Notes under the pieces: generated by a model | What the model was told of the DNA's origin: nothing | What the model saw: only the letters and a program-made list of their open reading frames with translations | Database searches by the model: none | Made by a program: the position numbers and the translations under genes | Sequence record: PZ445521.1 | Source of the DNA: a phage | Reading direction: 5' to 3' (one strand) | Length of the DNA stretch: 64,000 bases | Shown here: positions 1,594 through 56,798 of the stretch, piece after piece | Layout: each line of letters begins with the position of its first letter | How positions within the stretch are numbered: the stretch's first letter is position 1

Positions 1594-1902
1594 TTATTTA
1601 CCAATAAATTGAAGCAAATGCTCAGCTTTCATACCATTAACAGAAATCAATTTGTCAATAGAAAAACCTCGCCACTCGCCAAGCTCAACATCAAATACTG
1701 GAATCATATCAGTAGATTCTTTCCGAGCAGATTCAGTCAATTTACCAGTTTGCATGGTTGGCATAAAGTCCGCATCACGAGTGCCTTTCATAGTACGAAT
1801 AGTACCATCAGACTTTTCAAAAACTACGTTTGAAATACCCATGGACAATTTAGTTTTCAAAATTTCACGAATTGCTACTTTTTGTTCAGTCGTCAGTTTC
1901 AT
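1594..1902 (-). CDS. hypothetical protein (31.1 position)
   Basis: ORF track; position between 31 and cd. Confidence 0.55.
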   Translation of the reverse strand: MKLTTEQKVAIREILKTKLSMGISNVVFEKSDGTIRTMKGTRDADFMPTMQTGKLTESARKESTDMIPVFDVELGEWRGFSIDKLISVNGMKAEHLLQFIGK

Positions 1903-2139
1903 TTATTTACCTATTACAGTTTTAATATGAGTTGTTCCACGTTCTTTAAGAGTGGAAAGCAATTTTTGGCATTTTTCTAAATCAGATTTCCAACTATACG
2001 GCCTATCAATACAAACCCATTCTGACTTATAATACTGTTTCCATTTAGAGAAAAAATACTTCTTATACTCTACAGCAAATGAAATGTTCTCGTTAGAATA
2101 AGAACTAATTGCTGTGAGCTGTACCAAACGAAATTTCAT
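1903..2139 (-). CDS. hypothetical protein (31.2 position)
   Basis: ORF track; 1-nt overlap with cd. Confidence 0.5.
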   Translation of the reverse strand: MKFRLVQLTAISSYSNENISFAVEYKKYFFSKWKQYYKSEWVCIDRPYSWKSDLEKCQKLLSTLKERGTTHIKTVIGK

Positions 2140-2720
2140 TATTCACCACAGAATTCGTTGATATTTTCCCAGTTTAACTTATTCAAGTTTTTCTTAGGAA
2201 CATTAAACACTTCAATACCTGCATTTCGCAGAATATCATCCCAGCCAGGTTTATTTTTATCGTATGTTTCACAATAAACCAGCTTTTTAATTCCAGATTG
2301 AGCTATCGCTTTTGCACAATCTGGGCAAGGAGAAAGTGTTACATACATAGTAGCACCTTCAATAGAAGAACCATTTCGTGCAGCAAACAAAATCGCATTT
2401 AGTTCAGCGTGAATTTCATTTTTAGACGACCATTCAGAGTGAGCGCTACGGTGTTCTTTCGCCAAGACAAAACGATCAGTTGAACCAAACGATACGCATT
2501 CAGGCTTATGACCTTGAATGATAGTATGTTTAGGCTTGTTCAACAACCAGCCTTGTTCAGCAGCATAATCACAGCAATTCACACCACCAGCAGGTGAACC
2601 ATTATATCCGGTAGAAATAATACGTCCATTCTTTTCAATTACTGCTCCTACCTTCCAGGAGCAGCATTTTGATTCTTGCGATACTAAATATGCAATTTGA
2701 AGTACTGTACTCGCTTTCAT
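2139..2720 (-). CDS. cd: dCMP deaminase
   Basis: 193-aa ORF with zinc-binding HAE...PCxxC deaminase motifs (HAELNAI, SPCPDCAKAI). Confidence 0.9.
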   Translation of the reverse strand: MKASTVLQIAYLVSQESKCCSWKVGAVIEKNGRIISTGYNGSPAGGVNCCDYAAEQGWLLNKPKHTIIQGHKPECVSFGSTDRFVLAKEHRSAHSEWSSKNEIHAELNAILFAARNGSSIEGATMYVTLSPCPDCAKAIAQSGIKKLVYCETYDKNKPGWDDILRNAGIEVFNVPKKNLNKLNWENINEFCGE

Positions 2721-16136: not shown

Positions 16137-17045
16137 TTAAAGGTCATTCAAAAGGTCATCCAGGTCCGTGTCATCAGCACTAGATGAACTACCAGAGCTT
16201 GAGCTCATAAAATCATCTTCAGTTTTTGTATTAAAGTCATCAACATTGAATGCATCCAAATCATCAGCAACTTTATCAGCTTTCTTAGCAGCAGTTGCAG
16301 CAGCACTGCCCATCACAGCAGTTCCCATAACTTGACCGAATTTAGTGCTCAGTTCTTCAAATGATTTGAATTTATCTTTAGAAGTCATTTCAGAAAGATC
16401 AACCATTTGTTCGAACAGTTCTTTCTGGAAAGATTCATCGTCAATGTTTGGAATCGCAGATTGATTCAGGAATTTAGATTCATCGTAGTTACTAAATCCA
16501 GAAACTTGTTTAACTTTCAGTACAAAGTTAGCACCTTCCCACGGACAAGTTACATCAACCGGAGTTTCACCCATTTCAACATCAACTGCAATCATTGCAT
16601 TGATTTTATCCCAGATTTTCTTACCGAAACGGTATTTAAATACTTTACCTTCGTTTTCTGGAGCAGCTGGGTCTTTTACTACAAGAATGTTAGCCCAGTA
16701 AGAAGTTTTACGTTTAACAAGACTGTACTCTTTATTGTCAGTGTTGTACAGATCATTTTTACTGATGTATTGACATACTGGGCAAGAATCGTAATCACCG
16801 TGGGTAGATGAGCATGTTTCGATATACCATTTACCATTTTTCTTGAAACCGTGATTTACAAGAAGTGCGAATGGTGCTTGTTCATCATTTTTAGACGGAA
16901 GAAAACGAATTACTGCTTGACCGTTACCCGCATTGTCGAGTTTCAGTTTCCACTCGCCTTTATCTTCAGAAGAAAAACCACCTTTATTTCCAGCCAGTTT
17001 AGCCATTTGTGCAGCGAGTTCAGCAGTAGATTTACGTTTAAACAT
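16137..17045 (-). CDS. 32: gp32 single-stranded DNA-binding protein
   Basis: 302-aa [53 protein letters not shown]... with acidic Ser/Asp C-tail; matches T4 gp32. Confidence 0.95.
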
Positions 17046-17095
17046 TTTTATTTCCTTTTTAATTTAATTAACAGTTGGTGCTATGACACTTTACC

Positions 17096-17728
17096 TCATA
17101 GCTGGCATAATTCGCAATACTCTGGGTCTTCGAGAGGTATCCAACCCGAGTTGAAATACTTTACCATCGATTTAGCAGTTGTATCAGTTATATTTATATT
17201 ACCTTTAACTCTTCGCCATCCAGGAGTTTTACCGTACAGATTAGAGGATAATAATAACACATAATTCTCGTAAGCAATATGAGATAATTTCCAAGACTCT
17301 ATATTAGCTCGTGATGTTTTCCAAGGTCTGAAATCGTCACGGTTCATATAATTAGCCAATCTCATATGCTCTCTAACTTCCGGGTCTTTAGCTGGGTGAG
17401 TTTCACCACTCACACCAAATCCGCCGCCAGCATATACCAGATTAAAATAGTCTGGATTATCTCTGGCATTTACTTCAAGTTGGTATTTTCGCTCTGCTTC
17501 AATAACATCCAAATCATCATCAATTTGAATTATTTTAACGCTCGGTTTTTGAAGCATTACCGCATTTAAAAATCTTTTTTGTTTACACGAACTCCAGTAT
17601 TCCTTTCCGGAAGAGTCATATATTATTCCGTTCTCAAATGAGCAATTTAATTTACTACCGATATAGTAGTATGGCGGAGTCTTATTTTTGACACGGTCTT
17701 CAAATGTAAACCAATATACTATATTCAT
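17096..17728 (-). CDS. putative seg-like GIY-YIG homing endonuclease (T4 segG position)
   Basis: N-terminus NIVYWFTFEDRVKNKTPPYYYIGSK resembles GIY-x(10-12)-YIG; sits between 32 and 59. Confidence 0.4.
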   Translation of the reverse strand: MNIVYWFTFEDRVKNKTPPYYYIGSKLNCSFENGIIYDSSGKEYWSSCKQKRFLNAVMLQKPSVKIIQIDDDLDVIEAERKYQLEVNARDNPDYFNLVYAGGGFGVSGETHPAKDPEVREHMRLANYMNRDDFRPWKTSRANIESWKLSHIAYENYVLLLSSNLYGKTPGWRRVKGNINITDTTAKSMVKYFNSGWIPLEDPEYCELCQL

Positions 17729-17729
17729 A

Positions 17730-18383
17730 TCAATACTTGCAAGATTTCACAGTTTCAATGAAAACACTTTTAGCTTTCTGCGAATCAATATTTAAAATTT
17801 TTCTATAAGCCTTTAACTTTATAGAATAATTATTCCAGACTAAATTATCAGTCTGTTCATCATGTTTATCGATTATATTTAAAAACGAATCAAGCAAGAT
17901 AAACGTCTCAAACGAAATTATATTCGATTGAAGTAGTTTAAAAATATAACTTGATTGAACTTTTGGATTATATTCAAAAATTTCTTTAAAAGCAGAAACT
18001 TCAACTTTTTTACTAAAATAATAAATGTTGCGAATATCTTCTTCAAACTTAAATTTAATTTGCTTTAAGCGTCCGATATATTCACGATAAAACACAAGTG
18101 CATCAGCGTCAGAGATGTCGCCAATCCAAGCATCTTGGTTAGCAACCAAATTACTTATAAAGATTAAAGCAAGTTCCTTTAATTTATATTTTTCTGATAA
18201 CTTCTGAAAAAAATACTTATCCCTTCGCTTTTGATAAGCGGCATCAGACACCCGCATGCACCAATTATACTTAATAACATCATACTTTCCATTCATATGT
18301 TGTTTTATCATTAAGTATAATTTATAAACTGATTTACCATCAATGTATCTTTCACCACCAGCAGGCATGCGGAGTTTAATCAT
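17730..18383 (-). CDS. 59: gp59 helicase loader
   Basis: 217-aa ORF; length and position match T4 gp59. Confidence 0.85.
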   Translation of the reverse strand: MIKLRMPAGGERYIDGKSVYKLYLMIKQHMNGKYDVIKYNWCMRVSDAAYQKRRDKYFFQKLSEKYKLKELALIFISNLVANQDAWIGDISDADALVFYREYIGRLKQIKFKFEEDIRNIYYFSKKVEVSAFKEIFEYNPKVQSSYIFKLLQSNIISFETFILLDSFLNIIDKHDEQTDNLVWNNYSIKLKAYRKILNIDSQKAKSVFIETVKSCKY

Positions 18384-18718
18384 AGCAGAAAATCTAATGT
18401 ATTAGTTTTTTCACAACGAACAACAGAAGGACGTAAAAGATTTTCGTCAATAGCTTCCGACTGAATTTTTTCAATTATACCCGAAGGAATAAATTTAGCA
18501 AATTGAGTTTCAGGAATAGAGTTTTCTTCCAAGAATGCTGTCGTAGCTTCAAGATAACTCATTCCAAACTCTTCTACCATTTTTTCAATAATAAATCCAT
18601 TTTCTTGACGATCAAGAAGCTTTGCTATTTCATCCTTTTCTTTCTTGATTGAAAGTTCTTTTTCTGAAAGACCGGTCTCATCGACCGGGCGAATATCATT
18701 TAGAGAAAACTGTGTCAT
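18380..18718 (-). CDS. 33: gp33 late-transcription co-activator
   Basis: 112 aa from MTQFSLNDIRPVDETGLSEKE..; track ORF has 3-codon upstream extension. Confidence 0.85.
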   Translation of the reverse strand: MTQFSLNDIRPVDETGLSEKELSIKKEKDEIAKLLDRQENGFIIEKMVEEFGMSYLEATTAFLEENSIPETQFAKFIPSGIIEKIQSEAIDENLLRPSVVRCEKTNTLDFLL

Positions 18719-18965
18719 AAAGTTCAACTACCTCTTCAGTTTCAGCTTCAAACACATCACGGTTATCTTTATGATACAAAGCTAATAGACGATTAAACAT
18801 CTTACCATCAACGCCAAGTTCATCTTTGGCACGAATTCGAATATCTTTAATCAGTTCATTATAACCGGAAATTTTCAGTTTATGATCAGATGCTTCTTTA
18901 ATAAATTTAGCCAAGTCTTCGCCATGGATAGCTTCATCAAATTCAACCATTTCTTTTTTAGCCAT
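18696..18965 (-). CDS. dsbA: DsbA double-stranded DNA-binding protein (late transcription enhancer)
   Basis: 89-aa ORF between rnh and 33. Confidence 0.8.
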   Translation of the reverse strand: MAKKEMVEFDEAIHGEDLAKFIKEASDHKLKISGYNELIKDIRIRAKDELGVDGKMFNRLLALYHKDNRDVFEAETEEVVELYDTVFSK

Positions 18966-30336: not shown

Positions 30337-30993
30337 ATGGCAGCACCTAGAATATCATTTTCGCCCTCTGATATTCTATTTGGTGTTCTAGATCGCTTGT
30401 TCAAAGATAACGCTACCGGGAAAGTTCTTGCTTCCCGGGTAGCTGTCGTAATTCTTTTATTTATGATGGCGATTGTTTGGTATAGGGGAGATAGTTTCTT
30501 TGAGTACTATAAGCAATCAAAGTATGAAACATACAGTGAAATTATTGAAAAGGAAAGAAATGCACGCTTTGAATCTGTCGCCCTGGAACAACTCCAGATA
30601 GTTCATATATCATCTGAGGCAGACTTTAGTGCGGTGTATTCTTTCCGCCCTAAAAACTTAAACTATTTTGTTGATATTATAGCATATGAAGGAAAATTAC
30701 CTTCAACAATAAGTGAAAAATCACTTGGAGGATATCCTGTTGACAAAACTATGGATGAATATGCAGTCCATTTAAATGGACGTCATTATTATTCTGACTC
30801 AAAATTTGCTTTTTTACCAACTAAAAAGCCTACTCCCGAAATAAACTACATGTACAGTTGTCCATATTTTAATTTGGATAATATCTATGCTGGAACGATA
30901 ACCATGTACTGGTATAGAAATGATCATATAAGTAATGACCGCCTTGAATCAATATGTGCTCAGGCGGCCAGAATATTAGGAAGGGCTAAATAA
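30337..30993 (+). CDS. t: holin T
   Basis: 218-aa ORF with single N-proximal TM (VAVVILLFMMAIVWY) and large C-terminal domain. Confidence 0.9.
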   Translation: MAAPRISFSPSDILFGVLDRLFKDNATGKVLASRVAVVILLFMMAIVWYRGDSFFEYYKQSKYETYSEIIEKERNARFESVALEQLQIVHISSEADFSAVYSFRPKNLNYFVDIIAYEGKLPSTISEKSLGGYPVDKTMDEYAVHLNGRHYYSDSKFAFLPTKKPTPEINYMYSCPYFNLDNIYAGTITMYWYRNDHISNDRLESICAQAARILGRAK

Positions 30994-54982: not shown

Positions 54983-55501
54983 TTAATAGCCTCGATCTTG
55001 ACGTGCGAAATTTTCGGCATTTTTCAGATAATAAAGTTTAAAGATTTCCTCAGCTGACATTCCAAGAGCAATAAATTTATTCATAAAAAAGTGAAATTGG
55101 TCAATCAGTTCAAATTTAATTTCAAGCTGATCTTCAGGAGATAAGTCTTGAATTTTCTTGGATTGCATTTCAGAATAACGTTTCTTCCAAGGTTTCCATA
55201 CGGCAGAAGCTTCTTTTTCACCATTACTCATACCACCAAGAGAAGTATATAGCTCGCGAGTTTCATCTGCGATATAATCGTCTTGGTTTCGCAGCCAAGC
55301 AAGAACTTCTCCTGCGGTTTCAAGTGAATCAGGATGACGATTTGTTTCTGGCTTATCATTAGCCAAACGAATCTGTAAAGACCGCTGCATATCAAGCATA
55401 ACCTGCAATGGGTCTTTTTCATCACCGAGAATATCCCAGTATTCATTTTGAGCTTTATCAACACCTTCGATCAAATGAGCGCATTCATTAAAGTGAGCCA
55501 T
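54983..55501 (-). CDS. 56: dCTP/dUTP pyrophosphatase (gp56)
   Basis: 172 codons from MAHFNECAHLIEGVDKAQNEYWD.. with AGGAAA RBS; track ORF has 31-codon upstream extension. Confidence 0.8.
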   Translation of the reverse strand: MAHFNECAHLIEGVDKAQNEYWDILGDEKDPLQVMLDMQRSLQIRLANDKPETNRHPDSLETAGEVLAWLRNQDDYIADETRELYTSLGGMSNGEKEASAVWKPWKKRYSEMQSKKIQDLSPEDQLEIKFELIDQFHFFMNKFIALGMSAEEIFKLYYLKNAENFARQDRGY

Positions 55502-55572
55502 TATTTTTCCTTTCAATTCATGGGTTAGTAGATTAATTATACAATAAATATATAAAGCAATAAGGAGGACAT

Positions 55573-55773
55573 ATGGTACAAAAATTAATGGCACTTGTTG
55601 ATGCCATAAAAGGTAATAAGAAACGTATAGCTTTTACTATTTCTGCTATGGTAGGAATTTTACTCTGGAACTTTATTCTATCACCTGTTGCGATTGCACA
55701 TGGTATTAATATTCCAGTAGTTACTCTTGATACATTCGTAGATTTAGCATTTGCTTTAGTTGGGTTAATTTAA
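55573..55773 (+). CDS. small two-TM membrane protein on the opposite strand to flanking early genes
   Basis: Strong RBS AAGGAGG 5 nt before ATG; MVQKLMALVDAIKGNKKRIAFTISAMVGILLWNFILSPVAIAHGINIPVVTLDTFVDLAFALVGLI; 4-nt convergent overlap with gene 61. Confidence 0.5.
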   Translation: MVQKLMALVDAIKGNKKRIAFTISAMVGILLWNFILSPVAIAHGINIPVVTLDTFVDLAFALVGLI

Positions 55774-56798
55774 ATCTTGGCATATTTAGATAGCCGCATT
55801 TTAGCCATCAACCCCTGGGCAATATTATTTTTCATATATTCCATAATTTGTTCAGTGGTTGCACCTTCCTTTCTAATCATATCATTAACATCTTTTGATT
55901 TCCAGGGAGATTTATCCCAAAACATAACCCTTTCTCCTGCATCAACTAATTTAGTCATTCGCTTAATAGTGTCAGGATGACGAGGTTCATTATCTAAAAC
56001 CCACACACGTCTATCTTTAAATGGAACAACTTCTAGGTCTAATTGACCACCCGTAATAGCTATACCATTTTCAATAAAAAGTGAATCTATAGGTCCTTCT
56101 AGAACATATACATCACCATCTTTAACTCGTTCTACTCCATAGATTTTTGTTGCCTCAGGATAAGCTTTGATGGTGATATATTTTTGAGGAGCATCTTTCT
56201 TTAATGCACGTCCTTGAAAAGACTCAGCTTTTCCATTAGCATTATAAATTGGAATAACAAGACGAGGCTCAGAAATTTCCTTTTTATATGTTCCCGGTGC
56301 TATACTATTAACTAATTTAGGCCATTCGGTTGTAAACCAAAGATATTTCCATTTATCCTTTGGAATACAACGAGCTTTTACGTATTTTATAATTGGATGG
56401 TCTTCCGCCAGTTTATCTAATCTAACACATGACGGAAGAGATTTAATTATTTTCTTCTCAGGTTGTTTAGGAAGTTCTTTAGGTTTTTCTACTGGACGAC
56501 TTTTACCTTTTTCTTTTCTTATTTCAAAGATATACTCACGATATAAATCAGGTTCAAACTCCTTTAAATATATTCCGATTGGTGCATGATAGTTACAGTT
56601 ATAACAATGAATATTTCCTTCATTATTATCGCCATAATACCATCCACGAGCTTTATTCTGGTCGGTTTTTGAATCTCCACAAACAGGGCATCTAAACCGT
56701 AATTTAAAAGTTGAACTATTATTTACTTGTGTGAATTTAGGTAAATGGGCTAATGCACGATACGCAAACTCATTATCAATCCAAGGTATTGATGACAT
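55770..56798 (-). CDS. 61: gp61 DNA primase
   Basis: 342-aa ORF with N-terminal zinc ribbon (CPVCGDS...CYNCNYH) and Toprim domain. Confidence 0.9.
   Translation of the reverse strand: MSSIPWIDNEFAYRALAHLPKFTQVNNSSTFKLRFRCPVCGDSKTDQNKARGWYYGDNNEGNIHCYNCNYHAPIGIYLKEFEPDLYREYIFEIRKEKGKSRPVEKPKELPKQPEKKIIKSLPSCVRLDKLAEDHPIIKYVKARCIPKDKWKYLWFTTEWPKLVNSIAPGTYKKEISEPRLVIPIYNANGKAESFQGRALKKDAPQKYITIKAYPEATKIYGVERVKDGDVYVLEGPIDSLFIENGIAITGGQLDLEVVPFKDRRVWVLDNEPRHPDTIKRMTKLVDAGERVMFWDKSPWKSKDVNDMIRKEGATTEQIMEYMKNNIAQGLMAKMRLSKYAKI

Follow-up and report, generated by a model that had tools for sequence, protein, structure and literature searches.

The window, a 64,000-nt stretch of phage DNA (record PZ445521.1), carries a short open reading frame (ORF) between gene 56, for dCTPase, and gene 61, for DNA primase (Table 1). 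The frame begins with an ATG at 55573, ends with a TAA at 55771–55773, and specifies a product of 66 aa, MVQKLMALVDAIKGNKKRIAFTISAMVGILLWNFILSPVAIAHGINIPVVTLDTFVDLAFALVGLI. On its upstream side, 70 nt separate the ATG from the start codon of gene 56, which occupies the complementary strand and ends at 55502. On its downstream side, the ORF converges with gene 61, and the two stop codons share the sequence TTAA, which leaves codons 1–65 free of any other gene. A preliminary description of this DNA had noted the frame, its 4-nt overlap with gene 61 and a near-perfect ribosome binding site. All of these are present, except that the spacer between AAGGAGG and the ATG measures 4 nt rather than the 5 nt reported. 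It had also placed every other gene over ~25 kb on the minus strand. For larger ORFs this is the case: the plus-strand late block, comprising the tail-fibre genes and t, stops at 30993, and from 30994 to 64000 all ORFs of at least 90 aa, antisense-nested ones aside, lie on the minus strand.

Around the ORF, a 651-bp stretch matches Shigella phage JK38 (a Tequatrovirus) with 100% identity, and the JK38 record annotates the identical product as hypothetical protein JK38_00030. For gene 56, the mechanical ORF list gives a 203-aa frame at 54983–55594 (–), which opens with GTG and reaches into the small ORF. We regard this version as a spurious upstream extension; in agreement with the JK38 and T4 annotations, we place the real start at the ATG at 55502 (MAHFNE).

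Table 1. Features of the gene 56–61 interval, in window coordinates
Feature	Position	Strand	Basis or remark
Gene 56, dCTPase, divergent neighbour	54983..55502	-	ORF list and annotated relative
Middle promoter of MotA-box type for gene 56: TTGCTTTA, 11 nt, TATAAT	55536..55560	-	Consensus match only
AATAAATA, –10 element of T4 late-promoter type, A at –13	55543..55550	+	Sequence and motif conservation
Shine–Dalgarno AAGGAGG	55562..55568	+	Sequence; 4 nt (acat) ahead of ATG
CDS, small predicted inner-membrane protein, PHROG 2024 type A	55573..55773	+	ORF list, homology, AlphaFold2 model
Terminator-like hairpin ATGGCATCAACAAGTGCCAT, then T-run TAATTTTTGT	55588..55607	-	Inside the ORF, codons 6–12
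TTAA, overlapping stop codons of 66-aa ORF (+) and gene 61 (-)	55770..55773	.	Sequence
Gene 61, DNA primase, convergent neighbour	55770..56798	-	ORF list and annotated relative

Comparative data indicate that the 66-aa ORF is a genuine protein-coding gene, under purifying selection across the T-even phages. We pooled differences over six phylogenetically separate within-lineage pairs. In the 66-aa frame, 39.5 synonymous and 25.5 non-synonymous differences were counted, corresponding to a pN/pS of 0.21 (binomial p = 2.8e-10 versus the neutral expectation). This was the lowest value of the six frames, and no stop codon interrupted the frame in any of 14 sequences from four lineages; the five other frames gave pN/pS of 0.34–3.0 and contained 8–103 stops. 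Substitutions clustered at the third base of plus-frame codons, and length variants differed by whole codons (63, 65 and 66 aa). Between genera, 49–54% aa identity persists even though the DNA has diverged, and the frame is still open where identity falls to 20–50%. The Shine–Dalgarno sequence (AGGAG, GGAGG or GAGG) is kept in all 14 lineages compared. Within the window, the plus strand between 30994 and 64000 holds 31 ATG-initiated ORFs of at least 50 aa, and only the 66-aa ORF has AGGAG or GGAGG at the right distance from its start.

These data bear directly on the possibility, raised in the preliminary description, that the frame is spurious. On this reading, conservation would stem from minus-strand signals, namely a terminator of gene 61 and the promoters of dam and 56. 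Such signals do exist at the locus: the terminator-like hairpin lies within the ORF, ~165 nt past the stop codon of gene 61, and the MotA-type promoter abuts the frame. In addition, the T4 RefSeq record is blank here. But the hairpin is kept in Tequatrovirus (T4 and the relative L010) only and is absent in Mosig-, Gapriver- and JS98-like phages, and on this ground we rejected it as the cause of conservation. Nor would minus-strand signals account for the low pN/pS, the excess of third-position substitutions, a frame that stays open at low identity, or a Shine–Dalgarno element that no other plus-strand ORF in 33 kb possesses. We therefore consider a spurious frame extremely improbable.

The gene is widespread. 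Tblastn located the protein in 693 phage records, T4 and T2 among them, nearly full length and intact in 686 of the 693. The T4 copy (NC_000866 17738..17938, plus strand; 97% aa identity) lies between dam (16846..17625) and 61 (17935..18963). The RefSeq version of NC_000866 has no annotation at this position, whereas a re-annotated T4 clone lists a hypothetical protein. A match of the interval to phages in which it is annotated as non-coding had been proposed as an argument against the ORF. Formally, T4 RefSeq is such a match, yet it reflects an omission of annotation and is not evidence that the sequence is non-coding. The gene is likewise missing from the annotation of JS98, VR7, IME08, SP18, SH7 and PEi26. 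Elsewhere it is mislabeled: UniProt calls the version from phage OE5505 'Holin', and records of some Klebsiella and Escherichia phages give the name 'DNA packaging ATPase' or 'thymidylate synthase'.

Residues 2–66 of the product match positions 1–65 of the 65-position PHROG 2024 profile (E = 4.1e-31). Members of this family, which has no assigned function, include JK38_00030, RB55_p033 and VR26 gp031/gp032. The window ORF belongs to it without any distinguishing difference, and synteny is equal in all members examined. As a discovery the gene is thus modest, being already catalogued as a hypothetical protein in PHROG 2024. Type A, to which the window ORF belongs, is shared by Tequatrovirus, Mosigvirus (52% identity) and Gaprivervirus (49%). 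A diverged paralogue, type B, with ~20% identity to A, was found in 136 further records, from JS98-like phages, Gaprivervirus, Klebsiella T4-like phages, Mosugukvirus and some Kanagawavirus. A third variant, type C, is present in Kosakonia 305, PEi26 and Moon. Altogether, the small gene occurs in at least eight genera or groups of Tevenvirinae (Tequatro-, Mosig-, Gapriver-, Dhaka(JS98)-, Mosuguk-, Kanagawa- and Moonvirus, and Klebsiella T4-like phages). At every locus examined it sits between the gene 56 side and gene 61, opposite in strand to gene 61 and convergent with its 3' end, and the TTAA-type 4-nt stop overlap recurs in T4, Mosigvirus, VR26 (second copy), JS98-like phages and Potts1. 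Two phages carry tandem, diverged paralogues. In VR26 (L005 2495–2901) the order is A then B; in L024, a 173-kb metagenomic phage, it is B then A (2305–2698), and the start of A (2501) falls within the 3' end of B (2305..2508), an overlap of 8 nt.

Outside the T-even group, an exhaustive phmmer search of 1.84 billion representative proteins (eight matches) gave no credible relative. Two of the matched proteins, P0032 (1822 aa, 18 matched stretches) and P0036 (1255 aa), had scores inflated by multiple stretches and were judged spurious. P0036 is a repeat protein built of LLWN[FY]TTG...SSPAVANGVVY units, and its likeness to the mid-helix motif GILLWNFILSPVAIAHG of the small protein was judged coincidental.

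The other contents of the 56–61 interval are variable. In T4, segF lies between soc and 56, and dam lies between 56 and the small ORF. The preliminary description had correctly placed dam and gene 69 (now named segF) in the soc-56-61 interval of T4 and had seen neither here. Indeed, tblastn of the window revealed no homologue of Dam or SegF (best E = 5). Pairwise comparison shows that homology to T4 breaks off at window position 55541 and resumes at 55562, the first nucleotide of the Shine–Dalgarno element, so that ~900 bp of T4 (dam plus flanks) correspond to 20 bp in the window (55542–55561). Across the phages compared, cargo on the gene 56 side ranges from none to dam, dam with a nuclease-like ORF, homing endonucleases, or a MazG-like ORF. 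Specifically, L010 carries dam and a 186-aa ORF, JS98-like phages an HNH/NUMOD endonuclease, Kosakonia 305 a homing endonuclease, and Potts1, Kanagawavirus and Moonvirus a MazG-like ORF of 94 aa.

The 186-aa ORF of L010 (IMGVR_UViG_2974787500_000001, 1841–2401, minus strand) lies directly upstream of dam, whose start it overlaps with its stop. In Pfam, it matches the DpnII (GATC) restriction endonuclease below threshold (E = 0.0045; 16.8 bits versus a cut-off of 23). The two genes could form a nuclease cassette linked to Dam, here in a T4-like phage.

With so much cargo exchanged at this hot spot (dam, segF, HNH/NUMOD and other homing endonucleases, the MazG-like ORF), the 66-aa ORF might itself be seen as a recently inserted mobile gene that took the place of dam, and the preliminary description had named 'inserted' as one of two possibilities. 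We give this next to no likelihood. The ORF and dam coexist in T4 and in L010, the ORF is found in every arrangement examined, and the dam indel lies wholly upstream of the Shine–Dalgarno element. What stays constant in the interval is the small plus-strand gene adjoining gene 61; dam and segF are variable cargo.

We next consider how the gene may be expressed. Upstream of the ORF, as the preliminary description had pointed out, lies an element one base off the late-promoter consensus: AATAAATA, 22 nt from the ATG, agrees with the consensus at 7 of 8 positions. In 12 of 14 lineages, the motif NATAAATA occurs 13–22 nt ahead of the ATG, and the neighboring intergenic sequence is unalignable. The exact motif is absent in L022 and Moon, which, like the deviation at –13 in the window, counts against the assignment. 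Three lineages (Potts1, ZX14 and Kosakonia 305) have a perfect TATAAATA. Moreover, the dam+ allele of T4 and the dam– allele of the window each have their own ATAAATA, derived from non-homologous sequence (window 55541–55562). In T4, the late motif is GATAAATA at NC_000866 17709–17716, which predicts a plus-strand 5' end at ~17,722. No sigma-70-type promoter was found on the plus strand near the ORF. As is characteristic of the T4 late class, a TATAAATA-type element lies about one helical turn upstream of the predicted start, with no –35 element. Geiduschek and Kassavetis (PMC2988020) list 50 T4 late promoters, among them 32 perfect ones and 9 with A at –13, the most frequent variant and the one seen here. 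How strong the variant promoters are in vivo, relative to one another, is described there as an open question.

The core ATAAATA is scarce in the window. Both strands together contain 17 sites, whereas dinucleotide-preserving shuffles contain 37.9 ± 6.0, as would be expected if stray late promoters were selected against. Few of the 17 sites lie within ~35 nt upstream of an ORF with a Shine–Dalgarno element and ATG. Those few precede two late-block ORFs of 1289 aa (gene 34-like) and 221 aa, an ORF of 218 aa (taken to be the holin gene t), soc, and the 66-aa ORF. The layout of motif, Shine–Dalgarno and ATG at the 66-aa ORF is that of the late genes 34, t and soc in the same window; for t, AATAAATA is 18 nt from the ATG, and for soc, TATAAATA is 30 nt from it. 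Unlike soc and t, which are T4 late genes, the 66-aa ORF is opposite in strand to all of its neighbors and ends within the stop codon of an early gene, and its late transcription is a prediction.

Strand itself points the same way. Early and middle transcripts of T4 share one polarity, whereas late transcripts can have either (PMC2988020). Because early and middle transcripts here would have the other polarity, a plus-strand gene at this position would be late only. We infer from these features that the 66-aa ORF is transcribed late, with a predicted start at ~55556. The gene would be read by the late (gp55/gp33/gp45-dependent) RNA polymerase alone, the other strand serving early and middle transcription. 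Transcription would most likely begin ~6 nt downstream of AATAAATA, producing a leader of ~17 nt with a strong Shine–Dalgarno element. The literature on T4 Ribo-seq, TSS data and unannotated ORFs, searched without the TSS table of bioRxiv 10.1101/2024.04.04.588121, yielded no reference to the ORF and no transcript, ribosome-footprint or peptide support for the gene. After residue 18, the protein is predicted to yield a single tryptic fragment, a hydrophobic peptide of 48 residues, and this may be why proteomics could have missed the product.

The putative late promoter is closely interleaved with signals of the opposite strand. The spacer of the candidate gene 56 middle promoter is the reverse complement of AATAAATA, so that divergent middle and late promoter signals overlap over ~25 bp (55536–55560), within the region leading into the ORF. 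The T4 equivalent upstream of gene 56, in the oriA region, consists of TTGCTTA, 12–13 nt, and TATAAT.

At the other end of the gene, the overlap of the stop codons means that the ORF transcript would be complementary to the 3' end of the gene 61 mRNA. It is thus conceivable that the main function is exerted by RNA, with a late antisense transcript down-regulating the primase gene and the ORF being secondary; in T4, this transcript would also oppose read-through into dam. The overlapping stops in most lineages fit such a role, as a plus-strand transcript must enter gene 61 in antisense and a terminator has no room. But RNA-level regulation would not explain purifying selection on amino acids, the identity retained between genera, the invariant W–N, P and G residues of the protein, or the universally kept, strong Shine–Dalgarno element. 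Furthermore, L022 and L024 have, in place of the stop overlap with gene 61, a gap of 9–18 nt with a hairpin terminator, which removes the antisense overlap. The gap and its flanks (L022 2698–2730; L024 2698–2735) form a GC-rich hairpin flanked by T-runs on either side, and from its sequence the structure looks like a bidirectional terminator between convergent genes. Given that two lineages have this hairpin, the antisense overlap seen in the others may be a side effect. We find a primarily RNA-level function very unlikely; antisense action could be an extra, rather than the main, effect of the gene.

We turn to the protein, whose hydropathy remains high from residue 17 through the C-terminus and exceeds 1.6 over residues 17–45. 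AlphaFold2, run on a shallow 29-sequence alignment (Neff about 2.5), returned a model with a mean pLDDT of 82.5 and helices at residues 2–12, 16–42 and 52–63, with a loop at 43–51. The preliminary description had counted two transmembrane segments. The model shows one long helix (16–42), while the C-terminal helix, with 12 residues, is too short to span a bilayer. Net charge is +4 over residues 1–18 and –2 over residues 43–66, and a similar asymmetry is seen in types B and C. No basic residue occurs after residue 18. Residues 45–66, predicted as the end of the loop plus the 12-residue helix, are hydrophobic but include D53 and D57, and the C-terminus is FVDLAFALVGLI (...ALVGLI). Together, the model and the charge distribution suggest a single-pass inner-membrane protein oriented N-in, C-out. 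The short C-terminal helix fits a location at or beyond the outer leaflet, and a two-pass hairpin topology is also possible. A dual start at M1 and M6, like that of lambda S, was considered and rejected: M6 is not conserved outside Tequatrovirus and lacks a Shine–Dalgarno element.

Among 29 diverse members, five residues (M1, W32, N33, P38 and G44) do not vary, and two more (P48 and G64) are almost invariant. The invariant Trp–Asn pair in mid-helix, with Pro five residues on, suggests a helix–helix interface. An Asn buried in a membrane helix typically makes helix–helix contacts. Tandem paralogues, as found in VR26 and L024, fit with oligomers.

Searches for known relatives of the protein gave little. 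In Pfam, the protein and 29 family members had no meaningful match; the best (SSPI, Ldr toxin and Syndecan) had E values of at least 0.03 and involved 1–2 members each. A sequence profile search of the PDB produced only E > 0.4. Foldseek against BFVD and the PDB retrieved family members only, with all else at E > 3 and holins at E > 9. Alignment of the family profile with T4 T, RI and RI.1 by hhalign gave probabilities of <1%.

The size and hydrophobicity of the protein nonetheless call to mind a component of the lysis module, such as an additional holin or pinholin, an antiholin, or a factor that modulates T-holin/RI lysis inhibition. At ~65–70 aa, hydrophobic and with (here predicted) late expression, it resembles the class II holins or pinholins, exemplified by S68 of phage 21, as well as T4 T, RI and RI.1. 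It contains the one or more transmembrane domains expected of a holin, in the predicted helix 16–42, and has a late-type promoter whose layout is shared with the T holin gene of the window. One relative, from phage OE5505, is named 'Holin', and the diverged tandem copies in VR26 and L024 recall holin/antiholin pairs. Other properties argue against this assignment. Holins typically end in a charged tail. Class II holins have two transmembrane domains (N-in, C-in); the model of this protein predicts one full transmembrane helix, its second hydrophobic segment being the 12-residue helix, although a second pass is conceivable. The ...ALVGLI terminus is not a hydrophilic, highly charged domain. The protein shows no sequence or profile similarity to holin families or to T, RI and RI.1, and no endolysin gene is adjacent. 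No described holin family was matched by the protein or its relatives, whether in Pfam, by comparison to T4 T, or in Foldseek, and the 'Holin' label is an untested database name. By established genetics, T4 lysis needs t, which implies that this protein is not a sufficient holin. Membership in the lysis module appears unlikely to us, and we are similarly doubtful that the protein acts specifically in timing lysis or in lysis inhibition.

Comparison can also be made to the T4 superinfection-exclusion proteins Imm and Sp (gp61.3). Like these, the 66-aa product is predicted to be a small envelope protein, and sp lies only ~2 kb away (58 kb region). However, imm and sp are early genes on the minus strand, whereas the 66-aa gene occupies the late-only strand.

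Overall, we think it quite likely that this is a late-read T-even gene for a bitopic inner-membrane microprotein that makes intramembrane contacts during late envelope events. The suggestion of a late-expressed membrane protein in the preliminary description gains comparative support, from selection, the conserved Shine–Dalgarno element, the late motif, and a hydrophobic helix with positive-inside charge. In the proposed arrangement, a basic, amphipathic N-terminal helix (net +4) would reside in the cytoplasm. It would be followed by one long transmembrane helix, approximately residues 16–42, bearing the invariant Trp–Asn and Pro, and by an acidic/hydrophobic tail of ~24 residues, with its short helix, on the periplasmic side. 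Because of the Asn in the membrane helix and the tandem diverged copies in some phages, the protein would be expected to act late in infection by associating with itself or with another membrane protein. The setting would be envelope events, for instance lysis timing or membrane-associated assembly. More speculatively, it may be a late envelope component, shared from T4 to the T4-like phages of Klebsiella, Citrobacter and Edwardsiella, that adjusts the timing of T-holin/RI lysis or aids membrane-associated morphogenesis through the intramembrane Trp–Asn contact, an idea to which we attach rather low probability.

T4 is among the most thoroughly annotated viruses, and yet its RefSeq record lacks a conserved gene that is under selection, as do other T-even records. 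The practical value of this work is to fill a gap in the T4 reference annotation; adding the gene would make it visible to omics studies built on that reference. The locus also illustrates neatly how a predicted late gene can be squeezed in next to an early one, where middle and late promoter signals of opposite direction overlap. For the biology of lysis or the envelope in T4, the gene is a cheap knockout target.
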